Positions 5,021 through 41,568 of a stretch of DNA of 64,000 bases are shown in pieces. A model generated the notes under the pieces. The model was not told the DNA's origin. It searched no databases and saw only the letters and a list, made by a program, of their open reading frames with translations. The stretch's first letter is position 1; each line of letters opens with the position of its first letter. The position numbers and the translations under genes are program-made. The stretch is from assembly GCF_003334785.1 (NCBI RefSeq), contig NZ_QOWV01000008.1. One strand, given 5' to 3'. Source of the stretch: Escherichia coli. GTDB taxonomy: Bacteria > Pseudomonadota > Gammaproteobacteria > Enterobacterales > Enterobacteriaceae.

Positions 5021-5060
5021 TATCAGGTAAAGAAGCGTTGGTCAGTAGTTGTTGCTGTTC

Positions 5061-5354: not shown

Positions 5355-5575
5355 GGATTCAACCTTTTACAAATGTGTATCGAATGAAGCATAAGTGTAG
5401 TTTGCTTTCATCGCTCTCATCATGCTGTACGAAACGCGCTTGCGTGGTCAGTAAGAAGTGCCAGACTTTATATTCCACTTTTATTCCTTTTTATTCTTAT
5501 CGATAGCGTTTCGTTTTTTAAACCGCAGCGACCTTACCGCTATAGTCAGGTAATCATTAATAAAAGGATAAAAAA

Positions 5576-6394: not shown

Positions 6395-6397
6395 TTC

Positions 6398-7321: not shown

Positions 7322-7431
7322 TTTTCCCTCTGCATACTGTTTTGTCGTTTATGTATGCAGGCATGATAGCAAAAATGGCGAGGATGGCTCTGTTTGCGCC
7401 ACGCCGATTTTTCTTAGCCCAGACTGGTGAG

Positions 7432-8616
7432 CTAAATATCTTTAATAAACAGCAGGCAAATCATCGCAATACCCAACATCCCTATCGCCAGCCAGAACAA
7501 CGCATGGTAGCTCCAGATTTCAACCATAATTCCGTCAACAGAGCCGGCGATAATCCAGCCGACGCGTGAAGTATTTGCATATAACGTTGTCGCAGAGCCT
7601 ATTTTTTCAGGCATCAAGTCCTGAAAATAAAGCATGCCGATACCACAGAGAATACCAAGGAAGATGGCATTAAGAATTTGCAATTCCAGCTCAACCGCCG
7701 GAGTCGTCGCCATGAGTACGCTGGCGTAAAAACACATTCCACTCACGATAGCAATGAGCATTAATAGTCGCTTGCCAATACGTTTCATGTAATAGCCTGC
7801 GATTAACATCATCGGAATTTCCAGACCGGCAGCGATACCAATCATTTCTCCAGCCAGTTTATCGGTTAGATGCAGTTCATCAATAATAAATAGCGGCATA
7901 TTTATCATGTAGAGATTATTCGCCGCCCACATCATTGAACAGACCACAAAAAGTAGCCGCGTATCCCGCTTCCTGTGGGTGGAGGGTAAAATTTCTACGG
8001 GTTGGGTAACGACAGGAATATTTCTTTGTATTGATGGCAAAAACAACCAGACTATCAGTCCGCAAACAACAAATGCGATGGCAGCGGTGAGATACATCAC
8101 TTTAAAACTAAATCCCATTGCCAGTTCATAAGCGAGCGGTGGCCCGATAACCCAGGCAAGCGAGATCTGAGCACGTAAAAATGTACTGAACATGACCGTC
8201 TCACGGCCTGTTCTGTCGGCGTGTTCACGGGCGAGGGCGAACATTTGCGGGTTTGCGGTGGAAGCAAAACTACTCAGAAGTACGCCCGTTGAGAGGAGAA
8301 TGAAGTAGTTGCGATTCCACGCAAAAAGCGTGCAGGCCAGCACTCCAAATAAGCAACATAGCAGAATCAGTAATTTACGGTCGCCTTGTTTATCGGAGTG
8401 CCTTGCCAGAAATTGACTGACCAGAATTCCCATAATAGCGCTACCGGTGAAGAAAAAACCTACCATTATAGGACGGGCTTTCAGTTCATCTGCGAGGAAT
8501 ATACTTAGGGTAGGAGTCTGAAGAGCGCCCGCAATACCCGTCAGAAAGGCGACAAGTAAAAATGCCGCGGCAGTGAGATCAAGTATTTTTGATGGAGTGG
8601 TAGCCGTTTTTTGCAT
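7432..8616 (-). CDS. setC: MFS sugar efflux transporter SetC
   Basis: 394 aa, 12-TM MFS; neighbour of selC in E. coli. Confidence 0.8.
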   Translation of the reverse strand: MQKTATTPSKILDLTAAAFLLVAFLTGIAGALQTPTLSIFLADELKARPIMVGFFFTGSAIMGILVSQFLARHSDKQGDRKLLILLCCLFGVLACTLFAWNRNYFILLSTGVLLSSFASTANPQMFALAREHADRTGRETVMFSTFLRAQISLAWVIGPPLAYELAMGFSFKVMYLTAAIAFVVCGLIVWLFLPSIQRNIPVVTQPVEILPSTHRKRDTRLLFVVCSMMWAANNLYMINMPLFIIDELHLTDKLAGEMIGIAAGLEIPMMLIAGYYMKRIGKRLLMLIAIVSGMCFYASVLMATTPAVELELQILNAIFLGILCGIGMLYFQDLMPEKIGSATTLYANTSRVGWIIAGSVDGIMVEIWSYHALFWLAIGMLGIAMICLLFIKDI

Positions 8617-9248
8617 TCTTCTGAATCACCGGGCGAAAAAATATAACTGAGTTACAAATAAGTACCAGTCGAATGAGTATTGTATTAAGAATTTTTGAGT
8701 ATCGCTGATACAACCAGAAAGCAATGCTAGCGCAATATTATAGGGCCAGCAATTGAGATTATTAGTAAAAGCATGTTAAGAATTAATTACCGAATTTATA
8801 TATTAATTATAGTAAGGCAATGAGCTATTTTTGATAGTAAAAATAAAACAAGTTGATTTGATATATTAAATGAACAAATTAATCTTGATGGCAGTCTGAT
8901 TATTGGTGAAGTTTATAGTCAGTTTTTTTCGCCAGCGGTTAAAGAAATAGAATAGTCGTATAAAAAAGGGTGTTCTGGGGCGAGTAAAACAACATCTTCA
9001 CCTTAATGGCGATACAGTTGGCTGAGAGTCAGCAGGGGGGCAAATCACCTGCAAATAAACACGGCGCATACTGGCGTGAATATCGCGGATGCGTTCGAGG
9101 ACAGAAGAACCGACAGGCGGATTCTTCAGCCGCTCATCGTCCATCACAAAACCTTAGACCAGGTATTCCTGAAGCCGATTGAATATTGAGCAGTAGAAAA
9201 TATCTGGATTGACAGTATTACAAGGGGTTGGAGAACGTCAGGAGAGGC

Positions 9249-9273
9249 ATTTTGGCGGAAGATCACAGGAGTC
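9249..9273. repeat. attL core: duplicated 3' end of tRNA-Sec
   Basis: 25-nt attttggcggaagatcacaggagtc identical to 21074..21098; sequence diverges immediately on both sides. Confidence 0.85.
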
Positions 9274-9399
9274 AAAATTGACATATAACAATTTGATTCC
9301 AATCGTTTATATTTATCAGCTCTAATTCATTTATACACATCCTTATACACATAATATCTGTCGATTAATTTTTACACGTATCTTCACGCACGTTAACTC

Positions 9400-9700
9400 A
9401 GGAAAAAAATTTTTTTTCGAAAGAACTGTTCACACTGTTCACCTTTCTGTTTTCTCCTTTTATTTCAGTTTGATAGGTGGTGAATAATGGGTGAAGGGTG
9501 AACATTCGATTCTTCACCTCCGGCATTCTGCCGGTGTGACTTGTGCAGGGGATTAATCCTCCGCACTGAAATCACACAGGGAGAAAAAAGTTTTTTTGAT
9601 TTGATTGTTCATCTTTCGTTTTTCTCTTTTAATTTCAGTGTGATAACGGGTGAATATACGGTGAAGGGTGAACAGTGGATTGTTCACTTTCGGGGAATTC
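9400..9700. repeat. crr-like region: two ~120-bp direct repeats carrying TGTTCACC/GGTGAACA iterons
   Basis: Unit 1 about 9403..9525 and unit 2 about 9583..9700 share (a)8-9ttttttt...tgttca...tttctc...atttcagt.tgata..ggtgaa...ggtgaagggtgaaca; iteron motif matches the P4 alpha-binding repeats. Confidence 0.7.
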
Positions 9701-9705
9701 AGGGA

Positions 9706-9731
9706 TAAAAAAAGACCGGCAGATGCCGGTC
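9706..9731 (-). terminator. rho-independent terminator after alpha
   Basis: Minus-strand hairpin gaccggcatctgccggtc followed by TTTTTTTA, directly 3' of the alpha stop at 9739. Confidence 0.7.
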
Positions 9732-9738
9732 AGATGAG

Positions 9739-12072
9739 TCAGGCTGTTGCAGGGTCGTCACATTTCGGCAGCCAGTCGCCGTAGCTTTCCTCTTTCAGCG
9801 TCAGGTTGGTCTGTATCCCCTGTTTGGTATGGCGCTTCTCGTAATTCAGTCCGTATTCCTTCAGCATCACCGGCAGCCCCAGCCCGAACATTTTCAGACT
9901 GAGTACATTCCGGTAGCCGTTTGCCTCCATGTAGGCCAGATAGGCGTGATAGAGGTATTTACGGTAATTACGCGGGATGATACTGGCGTTCCCCATATAC
10001 ATGCCGCTGGTCTGCGGCAGGGTTTCCAGATAGCCGATAAAATCAAACGTCGGGTCGGCATCCCGTTTGATGTTCAGTGCCTCGTCTGAGTTCTGCTGGG
10101 ACTGAAGCAGTGACCGGGCGAGCATCGGGTCGCTGAACTTCTGCATCAGGTAACGCACGATGACCGCCAGCTCGCGGGTGATTTTGTCCTTAAGCTGCGG
10201 GTCGCGCTCCTGCGGGGCTATCTGTTCCGGGAAGTGAATAATCACCCGCCGGCGTGACACGCCGCCGCTGCGGTCGGTGAAGCGCATCGGGTTATTGTTC
10301 ACGGCCAGAATCACCGCCGGGATGTGCGTGGAGTACGCATCCCGGTATTTCGGGTCAACGGACACCGCATCGCCGCCGGTGATGGCCTTGAGTCCGGCAC
10401 CGTCGCCGCTCCATTTTTCCTGGTCCGGCAGGCGTATCAGTGAGAAGCCAGTTAACGCGGCACGTTCACGCGGGGATTCCAGCGTCTCGATGGTGGCCGA
10501 CGTGGCGTTATCCTCACCGGCCAGCAGGGTGGCTATTTCGGCCATGATACTTTTGCCGCTGCCGCCGGGACCGGTCACCTCCAGAAAGAGCTGCCAGTCG
10601 TAGCGGTTTGCCAGCACCATAAACAGTGCGGCCAGAATCACGTCGCGTTTTTCCGCACGGCCACCGGCGGCACGGTCAAGCCAGCGCCAGAATGCGGGGG
10701 CGTGGGTTTCCAGCGTTTCACCTTCCACCGGCGGGGTGAAATCCACATCGCACAGGGCGCGCATCCAGTGTGACGGACTGTGCGGGTGGAACGTGCCGTT
10801 CTGCGTGTCGAGCACGCCGTTACGAAAGCCAATCAGGCGGCGGGAGGGGGCTTCCTGCTGCGGAATAATCAGCTTCAGGGTGTCCACCACGGAGGCCACC
10901 TTCCCGGAGGAGAACGGCGCGCGCAGACGCTGAAACAGCCCGGCCACATCCCGGGCAAAGTCCTGTGGTGGCAGCACCTTCCAGACACCATTTTCATAGC
11001 GGGACAGAAGCTGGCCGTTGGCATCGACCGCGAGCGCCTCGCCGTAATGCTCATAGATACGCATGGCCTTTTCGCTGGTACTCATGGCGGAAAACTCCGC
11101 TTCGCTCATGGTGTCGAACGGGCTTTCAGCCGGTGGCCGGATGGCATCATAAATGGCCTTACGGGTGGTTTCCCCGCCGTACTGCGTGAAGGCATCATTC
11201 CAGTCACCGAAGACCGGCGGCAGGGCAACAACGCCCTCACACGCATCTGCGGCTGCGGCGGCTTTTTTCTGGCCGTCACCGCTGAGGTCACGGTCTGCGG
11301 CAAGGACAATCTGACAGGCCGGATGCTTCTGCCGGGCAAGGCTGGCCAGAGAAAGGAGGTTCACGGAAGAAAGCGCCACCATCACCGTTTCACCGGTCAG
11401 GTGATGTACGGTAAGTGCGGTCGCGTATCCCTCCGCTATCCACAGACGTTTTCCGGCCTGATTCTGTCCTTCAAGGGTGTGACAGGTGCCCCTGACCTGT
11501 CCGCCTTTCAGGGTGCGCTTACGGCCGTCAGCACTGATTAACTGAAGGTTAACCAGTTCGCCGCTGTCGTCATACAGTGGCACCACAAGGTCACCGGCGC
11601 GCCAGCTCACGCCACCGGCTCTGTGTGTGCCGGTCAGCATCCGGCATTCCCGGCCGGGAAAGCCCTTGCGGGTCAGGTAGGCGTTACCGGTTCCGGGACG
11701 GGTTTTCGCCATCAGGGTTTGTGCCAGTGCGGCGGCGTTCTTCCGGGCGGCTTCTGTTTCAGCACCGGCGGCGGCCGTCACTGCCGGGTCAGCCGGGGGC
11801 AGGCAGCCGGTCACGGCAGCCACCTTTGCGGCCGCGTCGGACGGGGAAACACCAAACACCTTTTCAACCAGTTTCAGGCCGTCACCGGCACCACACTGAT
11901 TGCAGTACCAGGTGCCGCGCCCCTCCCTGTCATCAAAACGGAAACGGTCACTTCCGCCACAGACCGGACAGGGCTGATGACGGTTTTTCAGCACCTGAAT
12001 CCCCAGCGACGGGAGAATACGCGGCCAGTGGCCGAGCGCATGGCTGACGGTGGCGGTTACGTTCATTTTCAT
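9739..12072 (-). CDS. P4 alpha-type primase/helicase
   Basis: 777 aa, the size of P4 alpha; N-terminal CPVCGG...CNQCG zinc-binding primase motif; Walker A GPGGSGKS in C-terminal half. Confidence 0.9.
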   Translation of the reverse strand: MKMNVTATVSHALGHWPRILPSLGIQVLKNRHQPCPVCGGSDRFRFDDREGRGTWYCNQCGAGDGLKLVEKVFGVSPSDAAAKVAAVTGCLPPADPAVTAAAGAETEAARKNAAALAQTLMAKTRPGTGNAYLTRKGFPGRECRMLTGTHRAGGVSWRAGDLVVPLYDDSGELVNLQLISADGRKRTLKGGQVRGTCHTLEGQNQAGKRLWIAEGYATALTVHHLTGETVMVALSSVNLLSLASLARQKHPACQIVLAADRDLSGDGQKKAAAAADACEGVVALPPVFGDWNDAFTQYGGETTRKAIYDAIRPPAESPFDTMSEAEFSAMSTSEKAMRIYEHYGEALAVDANGQLLSRYENGVWKVLPPQDFARDVAGLFQRLRAPFSSGKVASVVDTLKLIIPQQEAPSRRLIGFRNGVLDTQNGTFHPHSPSHWMRALCDVDFTPPVEGETLETHAPAFWRWLDRAAGGRAEKRDVILAALFMVLANRYDWQLFLEVTGPGGSGKSIMAEIATLLAGEDNATSATIETLESPRERAALTGFSLIRLPDQEKWSGDGAGLKAITGGDAVSVDPKYRDAYSTHIPAVILAVNNNPMRFTDRSGGVSRRRVIIHFPEQIAPQERDPQLKDKITRELAVIVRYLMQKFSDPMLARSLLQSQQNSDEALNIKRDADPTFDFIGYLETLPQTSGMYMGNASIIPRNYRKYLYHAYLAYMEANGYRNVLSLKMFGLGLPVMLKEYGLNYEKRHTKQGIQTNLTLKEESYGDWLPKCDDPATA

Positions 12073-12086
12073 GGTGTTGTTCTCCT

Positions 12087-12407
12087 TCAGTGCAGTACCG
12101 GCGCTTTTATGTGACGGGCACAGAGTTCATCCATCACAACCAGCCCGAGAAAGGACAGCGACGGCGCGGCCTTCAGGGGGCCGGATTCCATTAAATCTTC
12201 CAGCAGGGCACAGGCTATCTGACGCCCTTTTTCCTCACCGTGCTGGCGCAGATAAAAGCCTTCCAGCTCAGCGGCGATGGCCGCCTCCAGTGACTCAAGG
12301 GTGAGATGCGGGTAGCGGTGCTGACGTTCGCACACGGTCAGCCAGGCACAGGCGACAGCGCGACGGTAAAGGGCAGCGCGTAAGACGGGCGGTAAGGGGG
12401 TTTTCAT
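12087..12407 (-). CDS. hypothetical protein, P4-like satellite backbone
   Basis: 106-aa ORF immediately upstream of alpha, same strand. Confidence 0.5.
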
Positions 12408-12542
12408 TTGTTTTCCTCCCTGTGACAGATGACTGCATTCCGTGCCGGTTGCATTAACTGATAAGGCATATCTGCGTCTCCTGAAGACGTGCGTATCCCT
12501 GCGCGAATACGCACATTTAATTTTTCGGGTGTCGTTTTTTAA

Positions 12543-12998
12543 TTACAGATAATTGCGGTAACTGTTATCCGGGGTGATTTCCGGGTCAGGCTCCGTGCGG
12601 GGAATTTCCCGCCATTCCCGCGCCACCGGTGCCGCCCGGCTGACCGGAACAGGGTCCTGCGGGTAAATATCCAGATATTTCTCCCGCCATTTCTGTAATT
12701 CCGGGTCTCCGGCCATTTCTTTCAGTACCGCATGCCGGTTTACGGGGCTGCGTTTAAACAGGTCAGGACGGTCACAGGTAAATTCCCGCAGAAAACGCCC
12801 CAGCGGGATGTCTGTGGTGCGCCCGTCGGCGATGATACGCACAAGGATACTGAATTTACGGCGGTACGGGTTCCAGACAATTTCCGGGCAGCGGTACGGC
12901 ATTTCCCACGGAATACCGTCTTCCAGAATGCCGACCACGGCCACATCGGGAAAACCGGCAGAACGGTAAATCTCACCGGGCTGGGGAAAATCAAACAT
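12543..12998 (-). CDS. hypothetical protein, P4-like satellite backbone
   Basis: 151-aa ORF, same strand as alpha, in the P4 left operon position. Confidence 0.5.
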   Translation of the reverse strand: MFDFPQPGEIYRSAGFPDVAVVGILEDGIPWEMPYRCPEIVWNPYRRKFSILVRIIADGRTTDIPLGRFLREFTCDRPDLFKRSPVNRHAVLKEMAGDPELQKWREKYLDIYPQDPVPVSRAAPVAREWREIPRTEPDPEITPDNSYRNYL

Positions 12999-13857
12999 GC
13001 GTCCTGTCTCCCCGGTCTTTCTGCTGGGCGAGAAAATCGCGGCACAGGCCTTTGGCTTTCAGCTCATTCAGCACAAAATCAATATCTTCATTCAGGTAAC
13101 TGAAAATATGCGGAATGTAGAGCTGATGCAGGCCGGAGAGTTCACGGTGAATCAAATCACCCCCAACAAACTGGGATACGGCGCTGGCGCGGTTGAGCTT
13201 ATGGTAAGCCTCAATGCTGAGGTGTTCACGGGCGTCATGACGCGCTGAGACGGTCTGAGGGGCTTTTTTATTACGCACGGGACACCTCCACCACCGGCAG
13301 ACGGGCAGCAAGGGAGAGCACATAGTCACGGACAAGGGAACGGCGGGCGCTGCGTTCATCACCGGCGACGGTGCGAAGCATACAGATACGGGGATGACGG
13401 TCTGTGCGACGGACAGCCGCAAACACAAAGACAAATTCAGGGTGTGAGGGGGTAAGGGTTGTAGCCATGATGGCAGCCTCCTGTGAATAGCAAATAACGC
13501 TATCGCCGGAGTTCTCACGCTCGATGGCGATAGCCCAGACGGGGGTGAGAATACCGGCTTCACAGGATACCGGCCAGCCCGGAGGCTGCCCCGCCTGAGC
13601 TACCATTGACTCAGAGGCATAACATGCGATTGCGAACAGGATCATACCTGCACGGCAAACCACACGCCACACCATAATCTGGTGCTCTGTGGCGTTGATT
13701 GCGACACAAAAAAAGACGCATGGCGCGTCATATGTCGCCTGTGAATTGCTCGGGTTCTCACGCCCGGCTGCCGATTTTGCGGCAGCGGAAAAACTATATC
13801 CGCAAATGCCGGAAAAAGGCAAGCCAGAAAAAGGGAGTTTTTGCAGAGCGGGCATCA
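12999..13857 (-). other. P4-like immunity/early region with unresolved small ORFs
   Basis: Overlapping ORFs in several frames (12991..13563, 13271..13906, 12997..13248); only C-terminal parts look protein-like; position corresponds to P4 kil/cI-RNA/eps. Confidence 0.3.
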
Positions 13858-14124
13858 TCATGCGTCGTACCCCCGTTTGCGTCCGGCAATGCGTCCGGCC
13901 ATCCATGCGGTGACTTCAGAGTGCAGCCAGGCCACATTTTTACCGCCAAGACTCACCTGCGGCGGAAATTCCCCCTTACGGATGAGTTCGTAGATGGTCG
14001 AGCGTGACAGGCCGCACAGGTGCATCACTTCCGGAAGACGTAAAAAACGCTCCTGTGTGATGTCCGGCAGCGGCATCAGTGGCGTCACAGGGGCGGGAGA
14101 CGGGGAAGAAAAAACAGCTTGCAT
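13858..14124 (-). CDS. AlpA/Vis-family DNA-binding regulator/excisionase
   Basis: 88-aa ORF with [48 protein letters not shown], typical AlpA-type HTH; true start may be the internal Met (MPLPDITQ). Confidence 0.8.
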
Positions 14125-14403
14125 CGGGCTACCTCGTTAATGTCCATACAGCACCGGATAAGTCCGTCCGGCTTCAGGTAGCGCTTTATTTTGTGAATAT
14201 TTTCAGCAGACGCAACAGGGGGGATTTGTTCCGGCAGCCTTACAATGCTTGTGTATTTTTTGTTCATCTCCACTTAAAGTCATTTAAAGCCACTTAAAGC
14301 AATTCGTAATTTTTATAGTGAAATACAAATCGTTTTTTCTTATTCATTCCCGGCGAATTAATAAAAACAAACAGTAATAAACAGCACAAAAAGCCCATCA
14401 ACG

Positions 14404-14508
14404 GGTGAACAGTGGTGAACAGACGGTGAACAGTCATTACTGCGATTGTTCACCCTTTAACTTACTGTATTACTTATCTTTTTTCTTATGGTGAACAGAG
14501 GTGAACAG
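14404..14508. repeat. ori-like iteron cluster
   Basis: Five direct GGTGAACAG copies (14404, 14414, 14425, 14490, 14500) plus one inverted TGTTCACC (14447) between vis and sid. Confidence 0.7.
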
Positions 14509-14586
14509 TAAAATATAAAAAAACAAACAGTAAGCCGGTTTTTCCTACGACCTTTTCCTGGCTTGCCGGTGTGAGGATGAGTCTCC

Positions 14587-14604
14587 TGTGTCAGGGCTGG
14601 CACA
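14587..14604 (+). promoter_or_regulatory. TGT-N12-ACA activator site of a P2/P4-type late promoter upstream of sid
   Basis: tgtgtcagggctggcaca lies ~75-90 bp upstream of the sid ATG; Ogr/Delta-activated late promoters carry TGT-N12-ACA near -55. Confidence 0.5.
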
Positions 14605-14676
14605 TCTGCAATGCGTCGTGTTGTTGTCCGGTGTACGTCACAATTTTCTTAACCTGAAGTGACGAGGAGCCGGAAA

Positions 14677-15411
14677 ATGTCTGACAACACCATCCCTGAA
14701 TATCTGCAACCCGCACTGGCACAACTGGAAAAGGCCAGAGCCGCCCACCTTGAGAACGCCCGACTGATGGATGAGACCGTCACGGCCATTGAACGGGCAG
14801 AGCAGGAAAAAAATGCGCTGGCGCAGGCCGACGGAAATGACGCTGATGACTGGCGCACAGCCTTTCGTGCAGCCGGTGGTGTCCTGAGCGACGAGCTGAA
14901 ACAGCGCCACATTGAGCGCGTGGCACGCCGGGAGCTGGTACAGGAATATGACAATCTGGCCGTGGTGCTGAATTTTGAACGTGAACGCCTGAAAGGGGCG
15001 TGTGACAGCACGGCTACCGCCTACCGGAAGGCACATCATCACCTTCTGAGTCTGTATGCAGAGCATGAGCTGGAACACGCCCTGAATGAAACCTGTGAGG
15101 CGCTTGTCCGGGCAATGCATCTGAGCATTCTGGTACAGGAAAATCCGATCGCCAACACCACCGGCCATCAGGGCTACGTCGCACCCGATAAGGCTGTCAT
15201 GCAGCAGGTGAAATCATCGCTGGAACAGAAAATTAAACAGATGCAAATCAGCCTCAGCGGCGAGCCGGTTCTCCGGCTGACCGGACTGTCAGCGGCAACA
15301 CTTCCGCACATGGATTATGAGGTGGCAGGCACACCGGCACAGCGCAAGGTGTGGCAGGACAAAATAGACCAGCAGGGAGCAGAGCTTAAGGCCAGAGGAC
15401 TGCTGTCATGA
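14677..15411 (+). CDS. sid: Sid-like capsid size-determination protein
   Basis: 244 aa from ATG 14677 preceded by GAGGAG; alanine-rich coiled-coil protein; first gene of a sid-delta-psu operon. Confidence 0.75.
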   Translation: MSDNTIPEYLQPALAQLEKARAAHLENARLMDETVTAIERAEQEKNALAQADGNDADDWRTAFRAAGGVLSDELKQRHIERVARRELVQEYDNLAVVLNFERERLKGACDSTATAYRKAHHHLLSLYAEHELEHALNETCEALVRAMHLSILVQENPIANTTGHQGYVAPDKAVMQQVKSSLEQKIKQMQISLSGEPVLRLTGLSAATLPHMDYEVAGTPAQRKVWQDKIDQQGAELKARGLLS

Positions 15412-15908
15412 TTTACTGCCCGTCGTGTGGACATGTTGCTCACACCCGCCGCGCACATTTTATGGACGATGGCACCAAGATAATGATTGCACAGTGCCGG
15501 AATATTTATTGCTCTGCGACATTTGAAGCGAGTGAAAGCTTTTTCTCTGACAGTAAAGATTCAGGAATGGAATACATTTCAGGCAAACAGAGATACCGCG
15601 ATTCACTGACGTCAGCCTCCGGTAGCATGAAGCGCCCGAAAAGAATGCTTGTTACCGGATATTGTTGTCGGAGATGTAAAGGCCTTGCACTGTCAAGAAC
15701 ATCGCGGCGTCTGTCTCAGGAAGTCACCGAGCGTTTTTATGTGTGCACGGATCCGGGCTGTGGTCTGGTGTTTAAAACGCTTCAGACCATCAACCGCTTC
15801 ATTGTCCGCCCGGTCACGCCGGACGAACTGGCAGAAAGCCTGCATGAAAAACAGGAACTGCCGCCAGTACGCTTAAAAACACAATCATATTCGCTGCGTC
15901 TGGAATGA
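15408..15908 (+). CDS. delta: Delta, duplicated Ogr-type zinc-finger late activator
   Basis: 166 aa with two Cys4 motifs (CPSCGH...CRNIYC and CRRCKG...CTDPGCG); start overlaps sid stop. Confidence 0.8.
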   Translation: MIYCPSCGHVAHTRRAHFMDDGTKIMIAQCRNIYCSATFEASESFFSDSKDSGMEYISGKQRYRDSLTSASGSMKRPKRMLVTGYCCRRCKGLALSRTSRRLSQEVTERFYVCTDPGCGLVFKTLQTINRFIVRPVTPDELAESLHEKQELPPVRLKTQSYSLRLE

Positions 15909-15981
15909 GGGCTGCCGGTTAACACCGGCCGTCGCCGCACACCGTATTTTTATTCTTCAGCATGATGAGAAAGAGATAACG

Positions 15982-16554
15982 ATGGAAAGCACAGCCTTAC
16001 AGCAGGCCTTTGACACCTGTCAGAATAACAAAGCAGCATGGCTGCAACGCAAAAATGAGCTGGCTGCGGCCGAACAGGAATATCTGCGGCTTCTGTCAGG
16101 AGAAGGCAGAAACGTCAGTCGCCTGGACGAATTACGCAATATTATCGAAGTCAGAAAATGGCAGGTGAATCAGGCCGCCGGTCGTTATATTCGTTCGCAT
16201 GAAGCCGTTCAGCACATCAGCATCCGCGACCGGCTGAATGATTTTATGCAGCAGCACGGCACAGCACTGGCGGCGGCACTGGCACCGGAGCTGATGGGCT
16301 ACAGTGAGCTGACGGCCATTGCCCGAAACTGTGCCATACAGCGTGCCACAGATGCCCTGCGTGAAGCCCTTCTGTCCTGGCTTGCGAAGGGTGAAAAAAT
16401 TAATTATTCCGCACAGGATAGCGACATTTTAACGGCCATTGGATTCAGACCTGACGCGGCTTCGGTGGATGACAGCCGTGAAAAATTCACCCCTGCGCAG
16501 AACATGATTTTTTCGCGTAAAAGTGCGCAACTGGCATCACGTCAGTCTGTGTAA
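15982..16554 (+). CDS. psu: Psu polarity-suppression protein
   Basis: 190 aa, MESTALQQAFDTCQNNKAAWLQRKNELAAAEQEY..., recalled as P4 Psu. Confidence 0.8.
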   Translation: MESTALQQAFDTCQNNKAAWLQRKNELAAAEQEYLRLLSGEGRNVSRLDELRNIIEVRKWQVNQAAGRYIRSHEAVQHISIRDRLNDFMQQHGTALAAALAPELMGYSELTAIARNCAIQRATDALREALLSWLAKGEKINYSAQDSDILTAIGFRPDAASVDDSREKFTPAQNMIFSRKSAQLASRQSV

Positions 16555-16718
16555 AATTCCCCGAAAATCCGCCCGTTTTTACTGAAAAAAGCCATGCATC
16601 GATAAGGTGCATGGCTTTGCATGCGTTTTCCTGCCTCATTTTCTGCAGATCGCGCCACGCCCGGCGTGGCCTGAGCGTGTCAGCGCAACTGCATTAAAAC
16701 CATCCCACAAAGCGGGCG

Positions 16719-16737
16719 GGCGAGGCGGGGAAAGCAC
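16719..16737. other. cos site (P2/P4-type 19-nt cohesive end)
   Basis: Exact ggcgaggcggggaaagcac, ~165 bp downstream of psu as in P4. Confidence 0.8.
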
Positions 16738-16979
16738 TGCGCGCTTACTTAGATGCGTGAATTTATTTATATCACTGAAGTATATCCCTAAGCTCATTTC
16801 TCAAAGGGCCTATGGTTGCACAAGGTTGTACCATGGCATTCAAAACTTTTTAAACCAAGAATGACAATTTCATTATTAGGCCGGAATAGTTACTAATTTT
16901 AGTATAGGTTGCGATTGTTTAACGCATTTTTTATTATGATGCAGATTTTATTATTACTAATGGGGTGCAAAAAACACGT

Positions 16980-18269
16980 ATGAAAAAAAATGTTGGTAAC
17001 CGCAATAAAAATTCTGATGTGCTTATTCTTAAAGGTATGTTGAACAATTTAAAAGATGGTTTAAATAATTTTGAATTATTGCTTAAATTGCAGTTTAAAA
17101 TATTGGTGTGCGTGATGAGATGTGAGCGGAAAATTAAGTTTCTTAAAAAGAATAATGCTCATTTAAGGTCGGTGTTAAAAAAATCAAGACTTCCAAAAGA
17201 AAAATCTCTGGCAGTAAAAGAAAAAATTAAATACAATTCTGAAGTAATTACTGCTGAAAAATTCAAGATATATACGTATAAAATGTTTGGCGATGCTGTT
17301 GCATTTTTATACATCGATAAATATACAATTAAACAGTTATACTACAATGTACATAATTACAATGTTAAAGAAACGTCGGGGGATTTGAGCGGTAAGTCTG
17401 GATTGCGAGAGGAATGGGAATGCGTAAAACTTGCATGTGATAATAAAGTTCCAGCTCTGTTGCATGATATTACAATGAGTATAAGGCATGGAGATGTATC
17501 ACTTTTAGGTAAAGATGAGCCATTTATTATTGAGATGAAATCAAGCTCAAATACAAATAAGAGAGTTGAGCGGCAAAAATCTAACCTTGAAAAATTAGGA
17601 AGTTTCATAGCAAAAGACGAAGCTGAAAATTTTCGAGGGATTCCATTGTTAATCAGGAAAAATTTGTTAACTGAAGAGGAATCATATTCTCAGGTTTTAA
17701 ATGAGTGTCTTAATGATTGTCGCAGCAAAGGAATGGCTTTGGTTGAAGCTGAAAAAGGATTTTATATCTGCGCAGTTAGAGAAGGGAATATGGCTTCTAT
17801 GCTAGAAAATATAGATTTTGATGAAAAAAAAGAAGTTTTTCCTGTATTTCTCAATCAATATAAAAATAATGGGGAGTGGCTACCATTAACACCATTTACA
17901 CTATTAATTAACGATCCTTACGATCTCCATGATTTTATCGAAGGGGAATTAACAATAGCTTGTTTTTTAATGCTCGATGAATACAAAAAAATTGCTATAG
18001 AACTAGGCTATGAATTAGTTTTTGTTTCTAATGATGAATATAGTATCTTGTTAAAAAGAATTGGTGAAGATATTATATTTGGTGTTTCCTGGCAAATGTT
18101 GTTAAGAGTTCCATTAGAGATGATGTCCATGTCATGGTTGATAAAAGAAAGTATTAATATATATAGTAACTCCCTAGAAAATAGCACCCATAATGATGAA
18201 TTAAATCAGGGGCAGGGAAATACTAAAAATTCATTATTCGAAAAATACAAGAATTTATTTTCTTACTAA
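16980..18269 (+). CDS. hypothetical cargo protein A, possible PD-(D/E)xK nuclease
   Basis: ORF 16965..18269 (GTG) or ATG 16980; strongly AT-rich, Lys/Asn-rich; motif LHDITMSIRHGDVSLLGKDEPFIIEMK; no homologue recognised. Confidence 0.6.
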   Translation: MKKNVGNRNKNSDVLILKGMLNNLKDGLNNFELLLKLQFKILVCVMRCERKIKFLKKNNAHLRSVLKKSRLPKEKSLAVKEKIKYNSEVITAEKFKIYTYKMFGDAVAFLYIDKYTIKQLYYNVHNYNVKETSGDLSGKSGLREEWECVKLACDNKVPALLHDITMSIRHGDVSLLGKDEPFIIEMKSSSNTNKRVERQKSNLEKLGSFIAKDEAENFRGIPLLIRKNLLTEEESYSQVLNECLNDCRSKGMALVEAEKGFYICAVREGNMASMLENIDFDEKKEVFPVFLNQYKNNGEWLPLTPFTLLINDPYDLHDFIEGELTIACFLMLDEYKKIAIELGYELVFVSNDEYSILLKRIGEDIIFGVSWQMLLRVPLEMMSMSWLIKESINIYSNSLENSTHNDELNQGQGNTKNSLFEKYKNLFSY

Positions 18270-18301
18270 TTAAGCATTGTAATTATATTTGATTTTTTCT
18301 A

Positions 18302-18335
18302 CAGGCTTGGACGGAATCATATAGCTCCAAGCCTG
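18302..18335. terminator. bidirectional hairpin between the convergent cargo genes
   Basis: caggcttgga (18302..18311) pairs with tccaagcctg (18326..18335); flanked by T-rich sequence. Confidence 0.5.
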
Positions 18336-18370
18336 TTGTGTCGGTATCAAAAAGAAAGTGATATTATTGT

Positions 18371-19744
18371 TTATCTAATATATTTTGTTACTTCCATATT
18401 ATCTTCATCGTCAAAAGAGTACTCAACCATCATACGACTATTTTTACCTGACTTAATATCTTGAAGCCAAGCTGAGGCAACCCTAGGGTCTAAATGCTGT
18501 TTTCTACTCAGCTCATTATTTTTTAGCCTATCAAGCCTTATTGCTCTTTGAAGAGTTTTATCGATGTAGTCTTCCAAATCAATGGACAACCTCCTTTTTG
18601 GATATAAATATTGGTATTCATCACACAATAGTACTCCTGGTAATTTAATTTCGCGTAGGTCGAAAGAATACCAACTATAGTTTTTAGACTCATTAGCTAA
18701 TTCCGAAACTAGATGAGCCCCATTTTGTTGTAAGAGAGATATTTTGTGATCGATGCTAATGTCAGATATTTCTCTTAAAGACTCAAAATGCATGTTTTCG
18801 TAGATAGTATTTAATAAAATACTCTCCATGTAAGAGTAAAAATCAGTACCATCGATGATAATATTAGTTTCATTGTAGACTGCAAGAGACATAAGATATA
18901 TGAAGAAAACTGCGGGAGTACTATTACCTCTGTTTATATCAAGTCTAAGGGAGTTGACATAATCAGGCGGAGAGTTTGAGAAAATTTCTCTTATTAACCA
19001 GTCTGGAATAGTGGTTCTTGTTAGAATGTCAGCGTTCAAACTTGAACGACATAAAAAAATACACATCTTTAATTTTAATTTTATTGAAAATGATGGGAAT
19101 AAATGATCGATGAAAGATAAAATACATGTATACTCTGCTAAGTCTGTTTGTTGCAACTTTTCTTTTATTTCATTTTCAAGCATTTTTAATTTAAAAAAAT
19201 CATTCCTTTTTTCTAATATTTCCCAATGAAATAATTGCTCCTGAGCGTACGCATGCCCCTCTAAAATAGCTAGCATGCTTAAAGGAATGTTTAGGATTTC
19301 TTGATAATTATTAACATACCCAAAGAAATGGACTCTGATATACACACCCATATCGTCATCATATTGTAATGATGCTTTAATATTTTTATAATTTAATTTA
19401 TTAGTGCTGTTGTTTTTGAAGTGATAATGTAAAGTAATTTCAGTATCATCAACTAATAAATTATCAAAAGCCTCCTTTGTTTCATATTTAAAATAGTTAT
19501 ATAGCCGACATGAATAATTTAACCCCCAGTGAGTTGTAGAACAATCAAGTAAATGGATTGTTTCATGGAGATATGTTTTATAAAATTCAATTTCGCTATC
19601 ATCAAAATCATATATGCTTTTACTGTCTATGATATTTTGTGCTTGCGGTAAACTTATATTTAATTCATCGTTTGAAATCTCAATTAAATGTGATGAAAAA
19701 TCATAAGAACCCAATGTTTTGCTGTTAAATATACATCCGCTCAT
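18371..19744 (-). CDS. hypothetical cargo protein B, HExxH motif (possible zinc metallopeptidase)
   Basis: 457 aa, AT-rich; N-terminal YLHETIHLLDCSTTH; start ATG overlaps the integrase stop (ATGA at 19741..19744). Confidence 0.6.
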   Translation of the reverse strand: MSGCIFNSKTLGSYDFSSHLIEISNDELNISLPQAQNIIDSKSIYDFDDSEIEFYKTYLHETIHLLDCSTTHWGLNYSCRLYNYFKYETKEAFDNLLVDDTEITLHYHFKNNSTNKLNYKNIKASLQYDDDMGVYIRVHFFGYVNNYQEILNIPLSMLAILEGHAYAQEQLFHWEILEKRNDFFKLKMLENEIKEKLQQTDLAEYTCILSFIDHLFPSFSIKLKLKMCIFLCRSSLNADILTRTTIPDWLIREIFSNSPPDYVNSLRLDINRGNSTPAVFFIYLMSLAVYNETNIIIDGTDFYSYMESILLNTIYENMHFESLREISDISIDHKISLLQQNGAHLVSELANESKNYSWYSFDLREIKLPGVLLCDEYQYLYPKRRLSIDLEDYIDKTLQRAIRLDRLKNNELSRKQHLDPRVASAWLQDIKSGKNSRMMVEYSFDDEDNMEVTKYIR

Positions 19745-20916
19745 AGCAAATCCCCTAAAAGATAATCAGAGTACCATTGAATCATCGTTTTCCTTTGAGA
19801 AAAATATTGTGCGTGATTATAGGTTCCTCGGATATTGTTCTTATCAACATGTGCTAATTGCATTTCAATCCAGGTACTATCAAATCCCTGTTCATGTAGG
19901 ATTGTTGACATTGTATGTCTAAAACCGTGACCTGTAGCACGTCCTTTGTAACCAAGTAACTCAATCACTTGTGAAACACTTTCTTTTGAAATTGGTTTGC
20001 TACGATTGTTCCTGCCAATAAAAATATAGGGATAATGGCCGGTGATAGGCTTTAGCTGTTTAAAGAGGTCTACCACCTGAGTAGACAAAGGTACAATATG
20101 TGGTCTGCGCATTTTCATACGTTCCGCTGGTATCTCCCATATACCTTTTTCGAGGTCTACTTCTTCCCACGTAGCAAAGCGCATCTCCTGCGTTCTTACA
20201 CCAGTCAGCATGACTATCTTCGTAGCATTTTTGGTGATGATGCTACCGGTATAAGCTTCGAGATCCCGAATAAAATGAGGCAATTCTTCGGCAGATAGAA
20301 ATGGATGATGTTTTTGCTTAGGAACGGCCAGAGCGATGGCTAAATCAGGCGCAGGATTGTATTCAGCGCGGCCAGTTATGATTGCGTAGCGATAAACCTC
20401 ACCGCACCTCTGACGTACCTTACGTGTTTTCTCTAGTGCTCCACGCTTCTCTATTCGTCGCAACACTTCAAGAAGTTCTAAGGGTTTGATTTCACTAATA
20501 GGACGTTTACCAATGAACGGGAAAACATCTTGCTCAAATGTTTTAATAATTTCTTCGCGGTAGGCAAGTGTCCAGCGATCGGCTTTATTTGAGTGCCACT
20601 CACGACATATAGCCTCGAATGAGTTTTCTGTTGAGAGCTGCTGTGCCAGCTTTTGGGCTTTACGTTCTTCCACTGGGTCTATGCCGTTTGCAACCTGCTT
20701 CCGAGCTGTATCGCGTTTCTCACGTGCTTCAGCTAGGCTCACAAGGTCGTAGCTACCAAATGACATTAACCGCGCTTTTCCGGCAAAGCGGAAACGGAAA
20801 CGCCAGCCCTTCGAGCCATCGGGATTGATAAGCAATGACAGGCCCTGCCCGTCGTTCAATGTGTATGGCTTGTCTTGGGGCTTTGCTCGTTTGATTTGTA
20901 TATCTGTAAGTGCCAT
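19741..20916 (-). CDS. int: P4-family tyrosine integrase
   Basis: 391 aa; N-terminus MALTDIQIKRAKPQDKPYTLNDGQGLSLLINPDGSKGWRFRFRFAGK typical of P4-type integrases; C-terminal catalytic region with HGFRHT...Y; adjacent to the tRNA. Confidence 0.9.
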   Translation of the reverse strand: MALTDIQIKRAKPQDKPYTLNDGQGLSLLINPDGSKGWRFRFRFAGKARLMSFGSYDLVSLAEAREKRDTARKQVANGIDPVEERKAQKLAQQLSTENSFEAICREWHSNKADRWTLAYREEIIKTFEQDVFPFIGKRPISEIKPLELLEVLRRIEKRGALEKTRKVRQRCGEVYRYAIITGRAEYNPAPDLAIALAVPKQKHHPFLSAEELPHFIRDLEAYTGSIITKNATKIVMLTGVRTQEMRFATWEEVDLEKGIWEIPAERMKMRRPHIVPLSTQVVDLFKQLKPITGHYPYIFIGRNNRSKPISKESVSQVIELLGYKGRATGHGFRHTMSTILHEQGFDSTWIEMQLAHVDKNNIRGTYNHAQYFSQRKTMIQWYSDYLLGDLL

Positions 20917-21073
20917 GTGTATAAGCCAAAAATATGTATAAAAAATCTATACACATCACTATACATATTTTTCATGGATTCAGGGAGATCTTGTCGGACG
21001 GTTACGGATGAGTGATTTACTATATGTTTTGAAAATAAAGGATTTTTAGACTCTCTCGGATGGTGACGGAAGA

Positions 21074-21098
21074 ATTTTGGCGGAAGATCACAGGAGTC
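21074..21098. repeat. attR core overlapping the 3' end of selC
   Basis: Same 25-nt sequence as 9249..9273. Confidence 0.85.
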
Positions 21099-21172
21099 GA
21101 ACCTGCCCGGGACCGCTGGCGGCCCCAACTGGATTTGAAGTCCAGCCGCCTCACCGGAGACGACGATCTTCC
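21078..21172 (-). tRNA. selC: tRNA-Sec (selenocysteine, UCA anticodon)
   Basis: Reverse complement reads ggaagatcgtcgtctccggtgaggcggctggacttcaaatccagttggggccgccagcggtcccgggcaggttcgactcctgtgatcttccgcca, the 95-nt E. coli selC sequence. Confidence 0.95.
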
Positions 21173-21464
21173 GCGCCTCGATTGCTACATGGAGGCGGGG
21201 CGCATTATAGCTACTTCCTTGAGTTTCTACATCCCCCAGATCAGTTTTTTCCGCCTAATACACGCAGCGTATTATCACGAAAGCATTATAGTTCATATAA
21301 AATCCATATTTTACAATGATATATGAGCGGAATTAACGCTACCACGATCACATAAAACAAGAATCATAAATTAATAACCAGATATCGGAATATTCGCTCT
21401 CACAGGGATGGTTTACAAAATGCGTTATCGGTCTCAGCACCCCTATAGCATCAAGGAAAAGTAG

Positions 21465-22847
21465 ATGAAGAGTGAAGTGTTGTCCGTTAAAGAGAAAATT
21501 GGTTATGGCATGGGAGACGCCGCCAGCCACATTATTTTCGATAACGTAATGTTATATATGATGTTCTTTTATACCGATATTTTTGGCATTCCTGCCGGAT
21601 TTGTCGGAACCATGTTTTTGGTCGCTCGTGCACTGGATGCGATTTCCGATCCTTGCATGGGGTTGTTGGCCGATCGAACGCGCTCTCGCTGGGGTAAATT
21701 TCGTCCGTGGGTACTGTTTGGCGCACTGCCATTTGGGATCGTCTGTGTACTGGCCTATAGCACGCCAGATCTCAGTATGAACGGAAAAATGATTTATGCA
21801 GCAATTACTTACACCCTACTTACCTTACTTTATACCGTCGTCAATATCCCTTACTGCGCATTGGGTGGTGTAATCACCAATGACCCGACTCAGCGTATCT
21901 CGCTGCAATCCTGGCGTTTTGTGCTGGCGACCGCGGGAGGCATGCTTTCTACGGTTCTGATGATGCCACTGGTTAATTTAATTGGTGGTGATAATAAACC
22001 ACTCGGTTTCCAGGGTGGTATCGCGGTCCTTTCCGTGGTGGCATTCATGATGCTGGCATTCTGTTTCTTCACCACTAAAGAACGCGTTGAAGCACCACCT
22101 ACAACGACGTCTATGCGGGAAGATTTACGTGATATCTGGCAAAACGACCAGTGGCGGATTGTCGGTTTACTAACCATTTTCAATATCCTGGCGGTGTGCG
22201 TACGCGGTGGAGCGATGATGTATTACGTCACATGGATTTTGGGTACGCCGGAAGTGTTTGTCGCTTTTCTCACCACTTATTGCGTGGGTAACCTGATTGG
22301 TTCCGCTCTGGCAAAACCGCTGACCGACTGGAAATGTAAAGTCACTATTTTCTGGTGGACGAACGCCCTGCTGGCAGTGATTAGCCTCGCGATGTTCTTT
22401 GTTCCCATGCAGGCCAGCATCACTATGTTTGTCTTCATCTTCGTGATTGGTGTGTTGCATCAACTGGTGACACCTATCCAGTGGGTAATGATGTCCGATA
22501 CCGTCGACTACGGCGAGTGGTGCAATGGTAAACGCCTGACCGGGATCAGTTTTGCTGGCACGCTGTTTGTGCTCAAACTGGGGTTGGCCTTCGGCGGCGC
22601 TCTTATCGGCTGGATGCTGGCTTATGGCGGATATGATGCGGCAGAAAAAGCGCAGAACAGCGCCACGATTAGCATCATTATTGCGCTATTCACGATTGTT
22701 CCGGCGATCTGTTATTTGCTGAGCGCGATTATCGCTAAACGCTACTACTCACTCACGACGCACAATCTGAAAACCGTTATGGAACAGCTGGCCCAGGGCA
22801 AACGCCGTTGCCAGCAACAATTCACCTCTCAAGAAGTGCAGAACTAA
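21465..22847 (+). CDS. yicJ: GPH-family glycoside/cation symporter
   Basis: 460 aa, 12-TM; followed by a GH31 gene. Confidence 0.75.
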   Translation: MKSEVLSVKEKIGYGMGDAASHIIFDNVMLYMMFFYTDIFGIPAGFVGTMFLVARALDAISDPCMGLLADRTRSRWGKFRPWVLFGALPFGIVCVLAYSTPDLSMNGKMIYAAITYTLLTLLYTVVNIPYCALGGVITNDPTQRISLQSWRFVLATAGGMLSTVLMMPLVNLIGGDNKPLGFQGGIAVLSVVAFMMLAFCFFTTKERVEAPPTTTSMREDLRDIWQNDQWRIVGLLTIFNILAVCVRGGAMMYYVTWILGTPEVFVAFLTTYCVGNLIGSALAKPLTDWKCKVTIFWWTNALLAVISLAMFFVPMQASITMFVFIFVIGVLHQLVTPIQWVMMSDTVDYGEWCNGKRLTGISFAGTLFVLKLGLAFGGALIGWMLAYGGYDAAEKAQNSATISIIIALFTIVPAICYLLSAIIAKRYYSLTTHNLKTVMEQLAQGKRRCQQQFTSQEVQN

Positions 22848-39633: not shown

Positions 39634-39678
39634 TGCCCACTCCATGTGATATCAATTGCAAAGAAAGTAAATCTGTAA

Positions 39679-39694
39679 CTGTATTTATATACAG
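39679..39694. promoter_or_regulatory. LexA (SOS) box upstream of dinD
   Basis: ctgtatttatatacag matches CTGT-N8-ACAG, ~45 bp upstream of the dinD start. Confidence 0.7.
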
Positions 39695-41561: not shown

Positions 41562-41568
41562 TTTTTAA

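Follow-up and report, generated by a model that had tools for sequence, protein, structure and literature searches.

P4 uses the leuX tRNA gene as its own attachment site. A P4-like prophage in selC is also on record, the retronphage phiR73 (Sun, Inouye and Inouye 1991, J Bacteriol, as cited in PMC6174562), whose cargo, in the account given there, is a retron composed of a reverse transcriptase plus msDNA. The interval between psu and int of P4-like elements has been described as a reservoir of anti-phage systems, with retrons in this slot noted as reported earlier (Rousset et al. 2022, PMC9122126). Furthermore, six of eight uncharacterized loci picked at random from P4 cargo were found to protect against phage (de Sousa et al. 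2026 preprint, 10.64898/2026.02.27.708500).

We analyzed a window of 64,000 nucleotides of Escherichia coli DNA that contains an element of 11,825 bp in selC, similar in size to P4 (11,624 bp). This region is almost certainly a P4-type phage satellite, and comparison of its sequence with that of P4 makes it very likely that the satellite is intact and probably mobilizable. Like phiR73, as that prophage is presented in the citing article, it is a P4-like prophage in selC, but two genes, which we refer to as cargo A and cargo B, stand in place of the retron. The features of the element, in window positions, are as follows.

9249 to 9273, no strand: attR core, the distal repeat copy, duplicating the selC 3' end (exact repeat, empty-site reconstruction)
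9274 to 9403, no strand: attP arm on the crr side, 28.5% GC, without P4 homology
9404 to 9703, no strand: crr, the cis replication region, collinear with annotated P4 crr (4291 to 4590)
9739 to 12072, minus strand: alpha, primase-helicase of 777 aa, 98.5% identical to P4 alpha over 777/777 aa (phrog_2249, E=4e-240)
12087 to 12407, minus strand: orf106 (DUF5375), 100% identical to P4 ORF106
12543 to 12998, minus strand: orf151, 97.4% identical to P4 ORF151
12991 to 13278, minus strand: epsilon, helper-prophage derepressor of 95 aa, 98.9% identical to P4 epsilon and an annotated CDS in strain A1
13271 to 13861, minus strand: kil/eta/"cI orf" region, from the RefSeq annotation of a 99.9%-identical copy, 91% identical to P4 "orf137"
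13523 to 13610, minus strand: CI immunity RNA of the Rfam C4 antisense RNA family (RF01695, 74.9 bits, E=1.7e-13, full model)
13709 to 13799, minus strand: leader region with CI RNA targets (Rfam RF03163 and RF01394, both above gathering score)
13858 to 14124, minus strand: vis (orf88), AlpA-type excisionase and regulator, 98.9% identical to P4 ORF88 (excisionase PHROGs)
14180 to 14600, no strand: putative ori region, placed solely by collinearity with P4 ori repeats (9086 to 9413)
14677 to 15411, plus strand: sid, capsid size-determination scaffold of 244 aa, 98.4% identical to P4 Sid
15408 to 15908, plus strand: delta, zinc-finger protein of the Ogr/Delta type that transactivates late genes of the helper, 98.2% identical to P4 Delta
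15982 to 16554, plus strand: psu, protein that decorates capsids and inhibits Rho, 98.9% identical to P4 Psu
16719 to 16737, plus strand: cos cohesive-end sequence GGCGAGGCGGGGAAAGCAC (exact 19/19 match)
16980 to 18269, plus strand: cargo A, 429 aa (WP_000742539), candidate nuclease effector with a PD-(D/E)xK-like core (phrog_14906)
18371 to 19744, minus strand: cargo B, 457 aa (WP_001406847), candidate zinc metallopeptidase with an invariant HExxH
19741 to 20916, minus strand: int, P4-Int-type tyrosine integrase of 391 aa with selC specificity, 38% identical to P4 Int (integrase PHROGs)
20915 to 21073, no strand: int-side attP arm, in which TATACA(C/T)AT is present four times
21074 to 21098, no strand: attL core, which is the selC 3' end (exact repeat)
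21078 to 21172, minus strand: selC, intact tRNA-Sec with anticodon TCA (ARAGORN; Rfam RF01852, 83.8 bits at 21082 to 21172)

Positions 9404 to 16718 aligned in one piece and collinearly with P4 positions 4291 to 11624 (NC_001609/X51522), from crr to cos, at 97.7% identity. Homology to P4 starts at 9404 and stops at 16718, a position that corresponds to where the linear record of P4 ends. The initial annotation had proposed a complete P4-like satellite in the P4 arrangement, and alignment to P4 bore out the gene order from the tRNA: int, two cargo genes, cos, psu, delta, sid, vis, small open reading frames (ORFs), alpha, and crr. The assignments of alpha, sid, delta, and psu also held (98.5, 98.4, 98.2, and 98.9% identity to P4, respectively). 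All P4 core proteins, including orf106, orf151, epsilon, and vis, are full length and 97 to 100% identical to their P4 counterparts, with Int as the exception in identity. The completeness of the satellite is further supported by the exact cos sequence and the crr repeats, which consist of two long direct repeats (9436 to 9523 and 9606 to 9693) bearing TGTTCAC iterons.

The element also shares the RNA immunity of P4, with the CI RNA accompanied by its targets in the leader, where a c4-a1b1 match (RF03163, 49.5 bits) lies at 13747 to 13799 and an isrK-family match (RF01394, 71.4 bits) at 13709 to 13786. In RefSeq, the product of the kil/eta/"cI orf" region is named an Icd-like cell-division inhibitor. 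Both replication sites of P4, crr and ori, have counterparts in the element, ori by collinearity only. The cos sequence is unique in the window, with 0 occurrences expected in shuffles, and is of the P2/P4 type, which is predicted to allow packaging by a helper terminase. We considered an 85-aa ORF that spans cos (16607 to 16864) to be spurious.

In contrast to the core, the integration module differs from that of P4 in Int, arm repeats, and core site, with the selC 3' end used here. Int aligned with P4 Int over 406 columns (E=1e-95), with homology across the arm-binding, core-binding, and catalytic domains and with the motifs GVRTQE, HGFRH, and RGTYNH of the R, HxxR, and Y catalytic regions aligned, which places it among P4-Int-type integrases. 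Its match to NCBIfam PRK09692 (290.8 bits) was under the 434-bit cutoff, and a 391-aa Int counterpart in another locus (L007) contains Arm-DNA-bind_3, Phage_int_M, and Phage_integrase domains. We observed two direct copies of TATACACAT in the crr-side arm (9332 to 9340 and 9344 to 9352), which are putative arm-type Int-binding sites. In the int-side arm, TATACA(C/T)AT occurs inverted at 20915 to 20923 and 20932 to 20940 and direct at 20948 to 20956 and 20960 to 20968; all six occurrences of this motif in the window are inside the two att arms. At the level of sequence, the element is a mosaic of a P4-like crr-to-cos core, a replaced integration module, and an exchanged cargo slot. The initial annotation was silent both on the integrase not being that of P4 and on the cargo being located in the P4 defense hotspot.

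The gop, beta, and cII genes of P4 are absent from the element, and the AT-rich cargo A and cargo B genes (30.5% GC each versus 55% for the core) take their place. The two genes occupy exactly the psu-int hotspot described for P4 (PMC9122126), adjoining cos and lying between psu and int. This slot is variable among similar elements, as the backbone found at the selC site in many other genomes carries genes for SIR2, GapS4a/b, dCTP deaminase, AIPR, or a P-loop NTPase instead of A and B. The pair itself has been catalogued as system 32, "hypothetical + hypothetical," with 48 occurrences (WP_001406847 + WP_000742539; Table S1, PMC9122126), but is absent from the systems cloned and assayed in that study, and a search of the supplementary files accompanying the 2026 preprint (10.64898/2026.02.27.708500) did not find it. 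The systems named in the preprint, Crouga, Bandua, Aernus, Toga, Reve, and Hailong, differ in domain content from the cargo pair. Comparison of A and B with known defense-system models returned 0 PADLOC families and 0 NCBIfam families, searches among sequenced phages found neither gene, and no PDB match above chance level came from sequence-profile searches, whether the alignment was shallow or deep.

Cargo A was without a family in Pfam, PADLOC, or NCBIfam scans and matched only phrog_14906, a PHROG of unknown function. In its structural model (pLDDT 82.6), an N-terminal helical hairpin is followed by a predicted alpha/beta domain with a PD-(D/E)xK-like core. Across 34 sequences, E145, D172, E185, and K187 are invariant, which fits the E...D...(D/E)xK residue pattern, and in the model these residues are surrounded by an alpha-beta-beta-beta-alpha-beta topology (helix 142 to 154; strands 159 to 161, 173 to 175, and 182 to 184; helix 192 to 212; strand 214 to 218). 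We did not detect significant sequence-profile or structural similarity to established PD-(D/E)xK members. Cargo A as a relative of cII, the P4 gene that it replaces, was considered and rejected, as the D...ExK segments align without significance. The predicted center suggests that cargo A would be a DNA-cleaving effector. P2-like prophages of Serratia fonticola and Citrobacter freundii have relatives of cargo A (~50% identity) in the variable region that forms the P2 hotspot, which is bounded by gpA and the portal gene Q (Rousset et al. 2022). In these cases, the element is the helper rather than a satellite, and cargo B is absent. A 456-aa neighbor of the Serratia homologue was tested as a hidden relative of B and proved unrelated.

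Cargo B, whose start overlaps the int stop codon by 4 nt, had no useful match in Pfam, PADLOC, NCBIfam, or PHROG, and a member-by-member Pfam scan of 59 relatives likewise yielded nothing useful. H60, E61, H64, D67, W73, G74, G133, E162, and Y205 are invariant across 59 sequences. The model of cargo B (pLDDT 91.5, pTM 0.91) places the HExxH residues H60, E61, and H64 in a predicted helix (49 to 70), as in zincins, and a second helix (157 to 179) holds the invariant E162 and the near-invariant E169, which are candidates for a third zinc ligand. Neither fold nor profile similarity to any known peptidase family was found. The HExxH motif plus Glu162 suggests that cargo B would be a zinc-dependent protease or hydrolase. 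The family comprises 188 representatives at 50% clustering, one relative being a lone cassette among toxin-antitoxin cassettes in the chromosomal integron of Vibrio parahaemolyticus.

Considering their location, we lean toward cargo A and cargo B being anti-phage genes carried in the P4 defense hotspot, most likely as two autonomous single-gene modules that are stacked. A more specific and tentative proposal, to which we give somewhat less than even weight, is that both are new anti-phage genes of two orphan protein families, B representing a family of ~450-aa HExxH proteins and A one of nuclease effectors of satellites and helpers. The pair may instead form one two-component system, for example with an infection-sensing protease that activates or licenses a nuclease, and several observations are consistent with this reading. 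Rousset et al. list the two genes as a single system, and a variant element has kept them, also convergent, at equal divergence (A 74%, B 73%). We also observed the pair in Klebsiella (A 96%, B 97%) and a B remnant adjoining A in Pluralibacter. However, A and B are convergent, so a shared transcript is impossible, and B is translationally linked to int. A occurs without B in the Citrobacter P2 hotspot, beside an unrelated neighbor in Serratia, and alone amid transposases and integrases in distant genomes; B occurs alone in the Vibrio integron, as a cassette, and in Idiomarina, where a Tn7-like element adjoins it. Furthermore, exchange of the slot as a block leads one to expect coinheritance even without functional coupling. 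We consider a two-component system unlikely, although a serious contender.

Slightly less probable still is a role other than defense, with the cargo aiding the satellite against its helper, stabilizing the prophage as an addiction module, or acting on the host. Such a role would fit the lack of any known defense domain detected in A or B and the co-orientation and overlap of B with int. It also has precedent in the reference cargo gop-beta, which acts like a toxin-antitoxin pair (PMC9122126), and the 2026 preprint raises the possibility of P4 genes acting on P2. Nonetheless, the slot is overwhelmingly filled by proven or recognizable defense systems, and relatives of A are also located in the variable region of the helper itself, which argues against a purely anti-helper role. 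We continue to favor anti-phage activity of the two genes.

Based on established P4 biology, CI RNA would keep the prophage silent. In the presence of a P2-like helper, epsilon would derepress the helper and delta would turn on helper late genes. Alpha would replicate the excised circle from ori and crr, and Sid would force the formation of small capsids that Psu would decorate, with helper terminase cutting at cos. Int together with Vis would perform excision and reintegration at selC.

Alternatively, the element might be a domesticated or cryptic remnant that neither excises nor is packaged and is kept because its cargo benefits the host, which we regard as improbable. Decay of this kind is seen among relatives, as a Pluralibacter copy is reduced to a psu fragment, A, a 64-aa B remnant, and an int fragment; Klebsiella strain 176 contains B and a split A beside selC with an IS5-family insertion and without the P4 core; and two E. 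coli copies have an ISEc12 insertion. The 64-kb window also lacks a helper prophage. In the element analyzed here, however, each core gene is full length and 97 to 100% identical to that of functional P4, cos is exact, the att cores are identical, and both arms contain the repeats. The element is also 99.9% identical to the copy in strain A1, whereas the flanking chromosome of A1, 18 to 31 kb beyond the element (39601 to 52138), is 92.8% identical, which suggests recent horizontal spread. An intact satellite remains the reading that we prefer.

The boundaries of the insertion are set by ATTTTGGCGGAAGATCACAGGAGTC, an exact 25-nt direct repeat (9249 to 9273 and 21074 to 21098) around the 11,825 bp, as the initial annotation had noted. 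The placement of tRNA-Sec by ARAGORN and RF01852 shows the right copy to be the tRNA 3' end with a few downstream bases, confirming the further claim that this copy ends an intact tRNA-Sec. Because the Int core site is the last ~20 nt of tRNA-Sec, insertion duplicates 25 nt and the tRNA stays intact. We reconstructed the empty site in silico by joining 8750 to 9248 to 21074 to 21500 with one repeat copy kept and searched for it in 5,426 complete genomes. Many E. coli genomes contain the reconstructed setC-selC junction uninterrupted, with 100% identity along its full 926 nt, indicating that the 11,825 bp were inserted precisely and do not belong to the core genome. At least 80% of the empty site was covered at one place in 2,480 of the 5,426 genomes. 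The element thus combines a duplicated att core with a site that is unoccupied in other strains, as for site-specific insertion. There is virtually no probability that the repeat arose by chance and that the 11.8 kb belong to a conserved stretch of the E. coli core from setC to selC, as ATTTTGGCGGAAGATCACAGGAGTC is the sole exactly repeated 25-mer in the window (chance expectation for the pair, ~2e-6 by our own arithmetic, 64000^2/2 x 4^-25), the empty junction is common, the whole element is present in only 10 of the 5,426 genomes, and we found nothing in favor of this reading. The junction of flank, attR, and crr was found as here in 378 of the 5,426 genomes, so that ~7% of complete E. coli genomes have a P4-type element at the setC-selC junction. 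The initial annotation had implied that it was surprising for selC to hold a small satellite rather than a large island of virulence genes, which our analysis does not support; such an arrangement is long known from phiR73 and is frequent.

As a P4-like satellite in selC, the element is ordinary and nothing new in kind, and as one more case of a common arrangement it carries little weight. It illustrates well the evolution of P4 by module exchange, in that the core is kept and both the cargo and the integrase with its att module have been replaced. The point of interest is the cargo, two uncharacterized genes with a probable role in anti-phage defense. If our more specific proposal is true, B would found an HExxH family with a very confidently predicted fold that lacks a PDB neighbor, and members of this family would be dispersed singly among satellites, integron cassettes, and transposon-linked islands. 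Likewise, A would represent a family of helical-hairpin-plus-nuclease effectors of P4 and its helper P2, each carrying it in its own hotspot. The practical value of the element lies in this cargo, as the two genes form a compact locus with clear limits that is already in a catalogue but has apparently never been assayed. The structures of both proteins are predicted with confidence, residues of catalytic type are invariant in each, and neither has a relative whose function is known, which makes the locus a cheap candidate for a defense screen and, should it be active, a point of entry to two protein families that are so far uncharacterized.

A 25-nt sequence, ATTTTGGCGGAAGATCACAGGAGTC, was found at 9249-9273 and again at 21074-21098, and this pair is the only exact 25-mer repeat in the 64-kb window, against a chance expectation of ~2e-6 by our own arithmetic. 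These results bear out the initial annotation that a 25-nt direct repeat brackets ~11.8 kb, with both copies exact. The right copy had been assigned to the 3' end of tRNA-Sec, and the gene position obtained with both ARAGORN and Rfam confirms that this copy covers the tRNA 3' end. Features of the element and its edges are as follows.

9249-9273, left copy of the 25-nt repeat
13523-13610, P4 immunity RNA of the C4 family (Rfam)
16719-16737, cos, exact 19-nt cohesive-end sequence, directly after the P4-aligned stretch
16980-18269, plus strand, cargo A (WP_000742539, 429 aa)
18371-19744, minus strand, cargo B (WP_001406847, 457 aa), start overlapping the int stop codon
19741-20916, minus strand, int
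21074-21098, right copy of the 25-nt repeat
21078-21172, minus strand, tRNA-Sec (ARAGORN; Rfam RF01852, 83.8 bits)

The proposed comparison of the selC-setC junction was performed with an in silico empty site of 926 nt, composed of the left flank (8750-9248) joined to 21074-21500. This site matched many E. coli genomes in an unbroken alignment at 100% identity and was at least 80% covered at a single place in 2,480 of 5,426 complete genomes. Because the empty junction is common in E. coli genomes, the 11,825 bp constitute a precise insertion between setC and selC, and the possibility that they belong to the E. coli core genome is ruled out. Ordinary E. coli chromosome lies on either side, spanning adeD-setC to the left and, to the right, yicJ, yicI, and further genes as far as the waa cluster and kbl/tdh. 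We also observed a RhuM-family pseudogene fragment (9013-9174), with an internal stop and both ends absent, between setC and the att site. Since this fragment is annotated in empty-selC genomes as well, it is part of the conserved backbone. In Salmonella, the SPI-3 island at selC includes rhuM, so the fragment may have been left behind by an earlier island at this tRNA.

Positions 9404-16718 aligned in a single piece with positions 4291-11624 of phage P4 at 97.7% identity, a stretch whose limits in the P4 annotation are the start of crr and the cos terminus of the linear genome. All P4 core proteins in the element are full length, with identities to P4 of 98.5% for alpha, 100% for orf106, 97.4% for orf151, 98.9% for epsilon, 98.9% for vis/orf88, 98.4% for Sid, 98.2% for Delta, and 98.9% for Psu, so that the gene order and gene identities first proposed were right. 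Rfam placed immunity-RNA target elements upstream of the immunity RNA, and crr repeats and iterons were also detected. On excision, the element would form a circle of 11,825 bp, relative to 11,624 bp for P4, a size near enough for the small capsid to accommodate the element. A match to isrK, an Hfq-binding sRNA family first described in a Salmonella island, scored above the gathering threshold at 13709-13786 and shares sequence with the c4-a1b1 target element of the P4 leader. The coincidence suggests that isrK is just another name for the P4 immunity leader, given to it in P4-like islands of Salmonella.

Homology to P4 ends at crr; the 130 bp from the att core to crr are non-P4, as is the entire region from cos to selC. 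The integrase aligns with P4 Int over its full length and keeps the catalytic-region motifs but is only 38% identical. The 9-mer TATACA(C/T)AT has six copies in the window, all of them within the att arms: a pair on the crr side and four beside int. Their pattern resembles the arm-type repeats annotated around P4 attP. These copies are putative binding sites of the integrase of the element.

The gop, beta, and cII genes of P4 are missing, and cargo A and cargo B stand in their place, with a GC content of 30.5% relative to 55% for the P4 core. The whole element with both cargo genes occurs in 10 of 5,426 complete E. coli genomes, with the best match (99.9%) in strain A1, from an echidna. Identity of the window to A1 was 99.9% in the satellite and 98.4% and then 92.8% (39601-52138) farther right, indicating that the satellite is more conserved than its chromosomal surroundings. 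Judged from sequence, the source of the window differs from A1. The outer part of the waa (lipopolysaccharide [LPS] core) cluster, ~52139-60724, gave no megablast match to A1, which suggests that the two differ in LPS core type. In two human isolates, E. coli 23CRST007 and 23CRST012, the element is split by ISEc12 (IS21 family, istA/istB). The junction of flank, att core, arm, and P4 crr was present in 378 genomes, or ~7% of complete E. coli genomes. In many genomes, an element next to tRNA-Sec combines this backbone and a related integrase with different cargo, including SIR2, GapS4a/b, dCTP deaminase, AIPR, and a P-loop NTPase.

Cargo A matched no Pfam, NCBIfam, or PADLOC model, and its sole profile match was phrog_14906, of unknown function. 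The family has few members: 36 clusters were found among 5.8 billion proteins, and no cluster carries a Pfam domain. Residues invariant in a 34-member alignment are E145, D172, E185, and K187, along with GD and RxxRQ motifs. In a confident AlphaFold model (pLDDT, 82.6; pTM, 0.84), a long helical hairpin at the N terminus precedes an alpha/beta domain. In the latter, E145 is on a helix, D172 opens the second strand, and E185-x-K187 closes the third, with a helix and a fourth strand after it. The modeled alpha/beta layout is that of a PD-(D/E)xK nuclease core. Relatives at ~50% identity occupy the variable region of P2-like prophages, between the gpA and portal genes, in Serratia fonticola (locus L008, 7001-10141) and Citrobacter freundii (locus L009, 7001-8290), and those at ~30% are lone genes amid integrases, transposases, and resolvases in distant genomes. 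By gene location, one family occupies the hotspots of both helper (P2) and satellite (P4). Almost no recent P2-P4 exchange (>85% identity) has been reported (de Sousa et al. 2026 preprint), so such sharing would be old or indirect. A 456-aa Serratia gene following the cargo A relative, which has no Pfam match, was considered as a cargo B relative and proved unrelated.

Cargo B had no match to the models of any library scanned. A full HMM search of 1.84 billion representatives yielded 188 relatives, nearly all of 430-470 aa. Only nine residues are invariant in 59 relatives (H60, E61, H64, D67, W73, G74, G133, E162, and Y205), a set that includes an HExxH motif and a distal glutamate. One relative in Idiomarina adjoins a Tn7-like tnsABC-tniQ module, and those on short metagenomic contigs lie 3' of a small toxin-antitoxin-like pair. 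Another is a lone cassette amid ParE/Phd cassettes in a Vibrio parahaemolyticus chromosomal integron (35% identity; loci L002-L005, 8001-9347). That array, which looks like a chromosomal superintegron, has many ~30-codon open reading frames separating its cassettes; it encodes GNAT acetyltransferases, ParE/Phd pairs, a protein kinase, and a MazG-like protein, and a reverse transcriptase cassette lies nearby. In the element itself, cargo B and int overlap by ATGA (19741-19744, minus strand), and cargo B may be translationally coupled to the integrase, which would be unusual for a presumed defense gene.

Both cargo genes recur in a diverged P4-at-selC element, each at 73-74% identity. In Klebsiella pneumoniae strain 176 (CP125156.1), yicI adjoins cargo B (97%) and a cargo A gene that is split (96%); ISKpn26 comes next, and no P4 core is annotated. 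This locus represents a relative of the element that has decayed in a different genus. PLSDB lists this 5.37-Mb sequence as 'plasmid unnamed2,' and it is evidently a chromosome. In Pluralibacter gergoviae (loci L011/L012), a 64-codon remnant of the cargo B C terminus (8390-8581; 73% identity) lies next to cargo A (91%) and to fragments of psu and int; the satellite has decayed there, but cargo A is intact. Co-occurrence in these three settings speaks for a single two-component system, which we nevertheless consider rather unlikely. Because the two genes are convergent and each is found without the other in other mobile elements, we favor two autonomous modules carried together.

Structurally, the element is an intact P4 whose integration module is specific for selC. 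By established P4 biology, CI RNA would maintain lysogeny, epsilon would derepress the helper, Delta would activate late genes, and Sid and Psu would assemble the small capsid; alpha would replicate the element at ori/crr, packaging would occur at cos, and Int with Vis would mediate integration and excision. The slot that holds the cargo is the psu-int hotspot of anti-phage systems, which Rousset et al. 2022 (PMC9122126) reported and de Sousa et al. 2026 took further. From this context, we lean slightly toward the cargo shielding the lysogen, and hence the satellite, from other phages, on account of the invariant catalytic-type residues and of published success rates, with protection found for 7 of 19 (PMC9122126) and 6 of 8 (de Sousa et al. 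2026 preprint) hotspot loci of unknown function.

The finding is real and the first reading of it correct, yet it is ordinary. P4-type satellites in selC have been known in kind since 1991, when the P4-like retronphage phiR73 in the selenocystyl-tRNA gene was published (as cited in PMC6174562), and the cargo pair is already catalogued in Table S1 of Rousset et al. as 'hypothetical + hypothetical' (system 32, 48 occurrences; PMC9122126). The pair is not in the table of cloned systems of that study, nor was it found in the supplementary material of the de Sousa et al. 2026 preprint, and neither accession is mentioned in the searchable literature, which likewise yields no test of cargo A or B. 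The interest that remains lies there and in the two proteins themselves, which belong to orphan families and have confidently predicted folds without a PDB neighbor.
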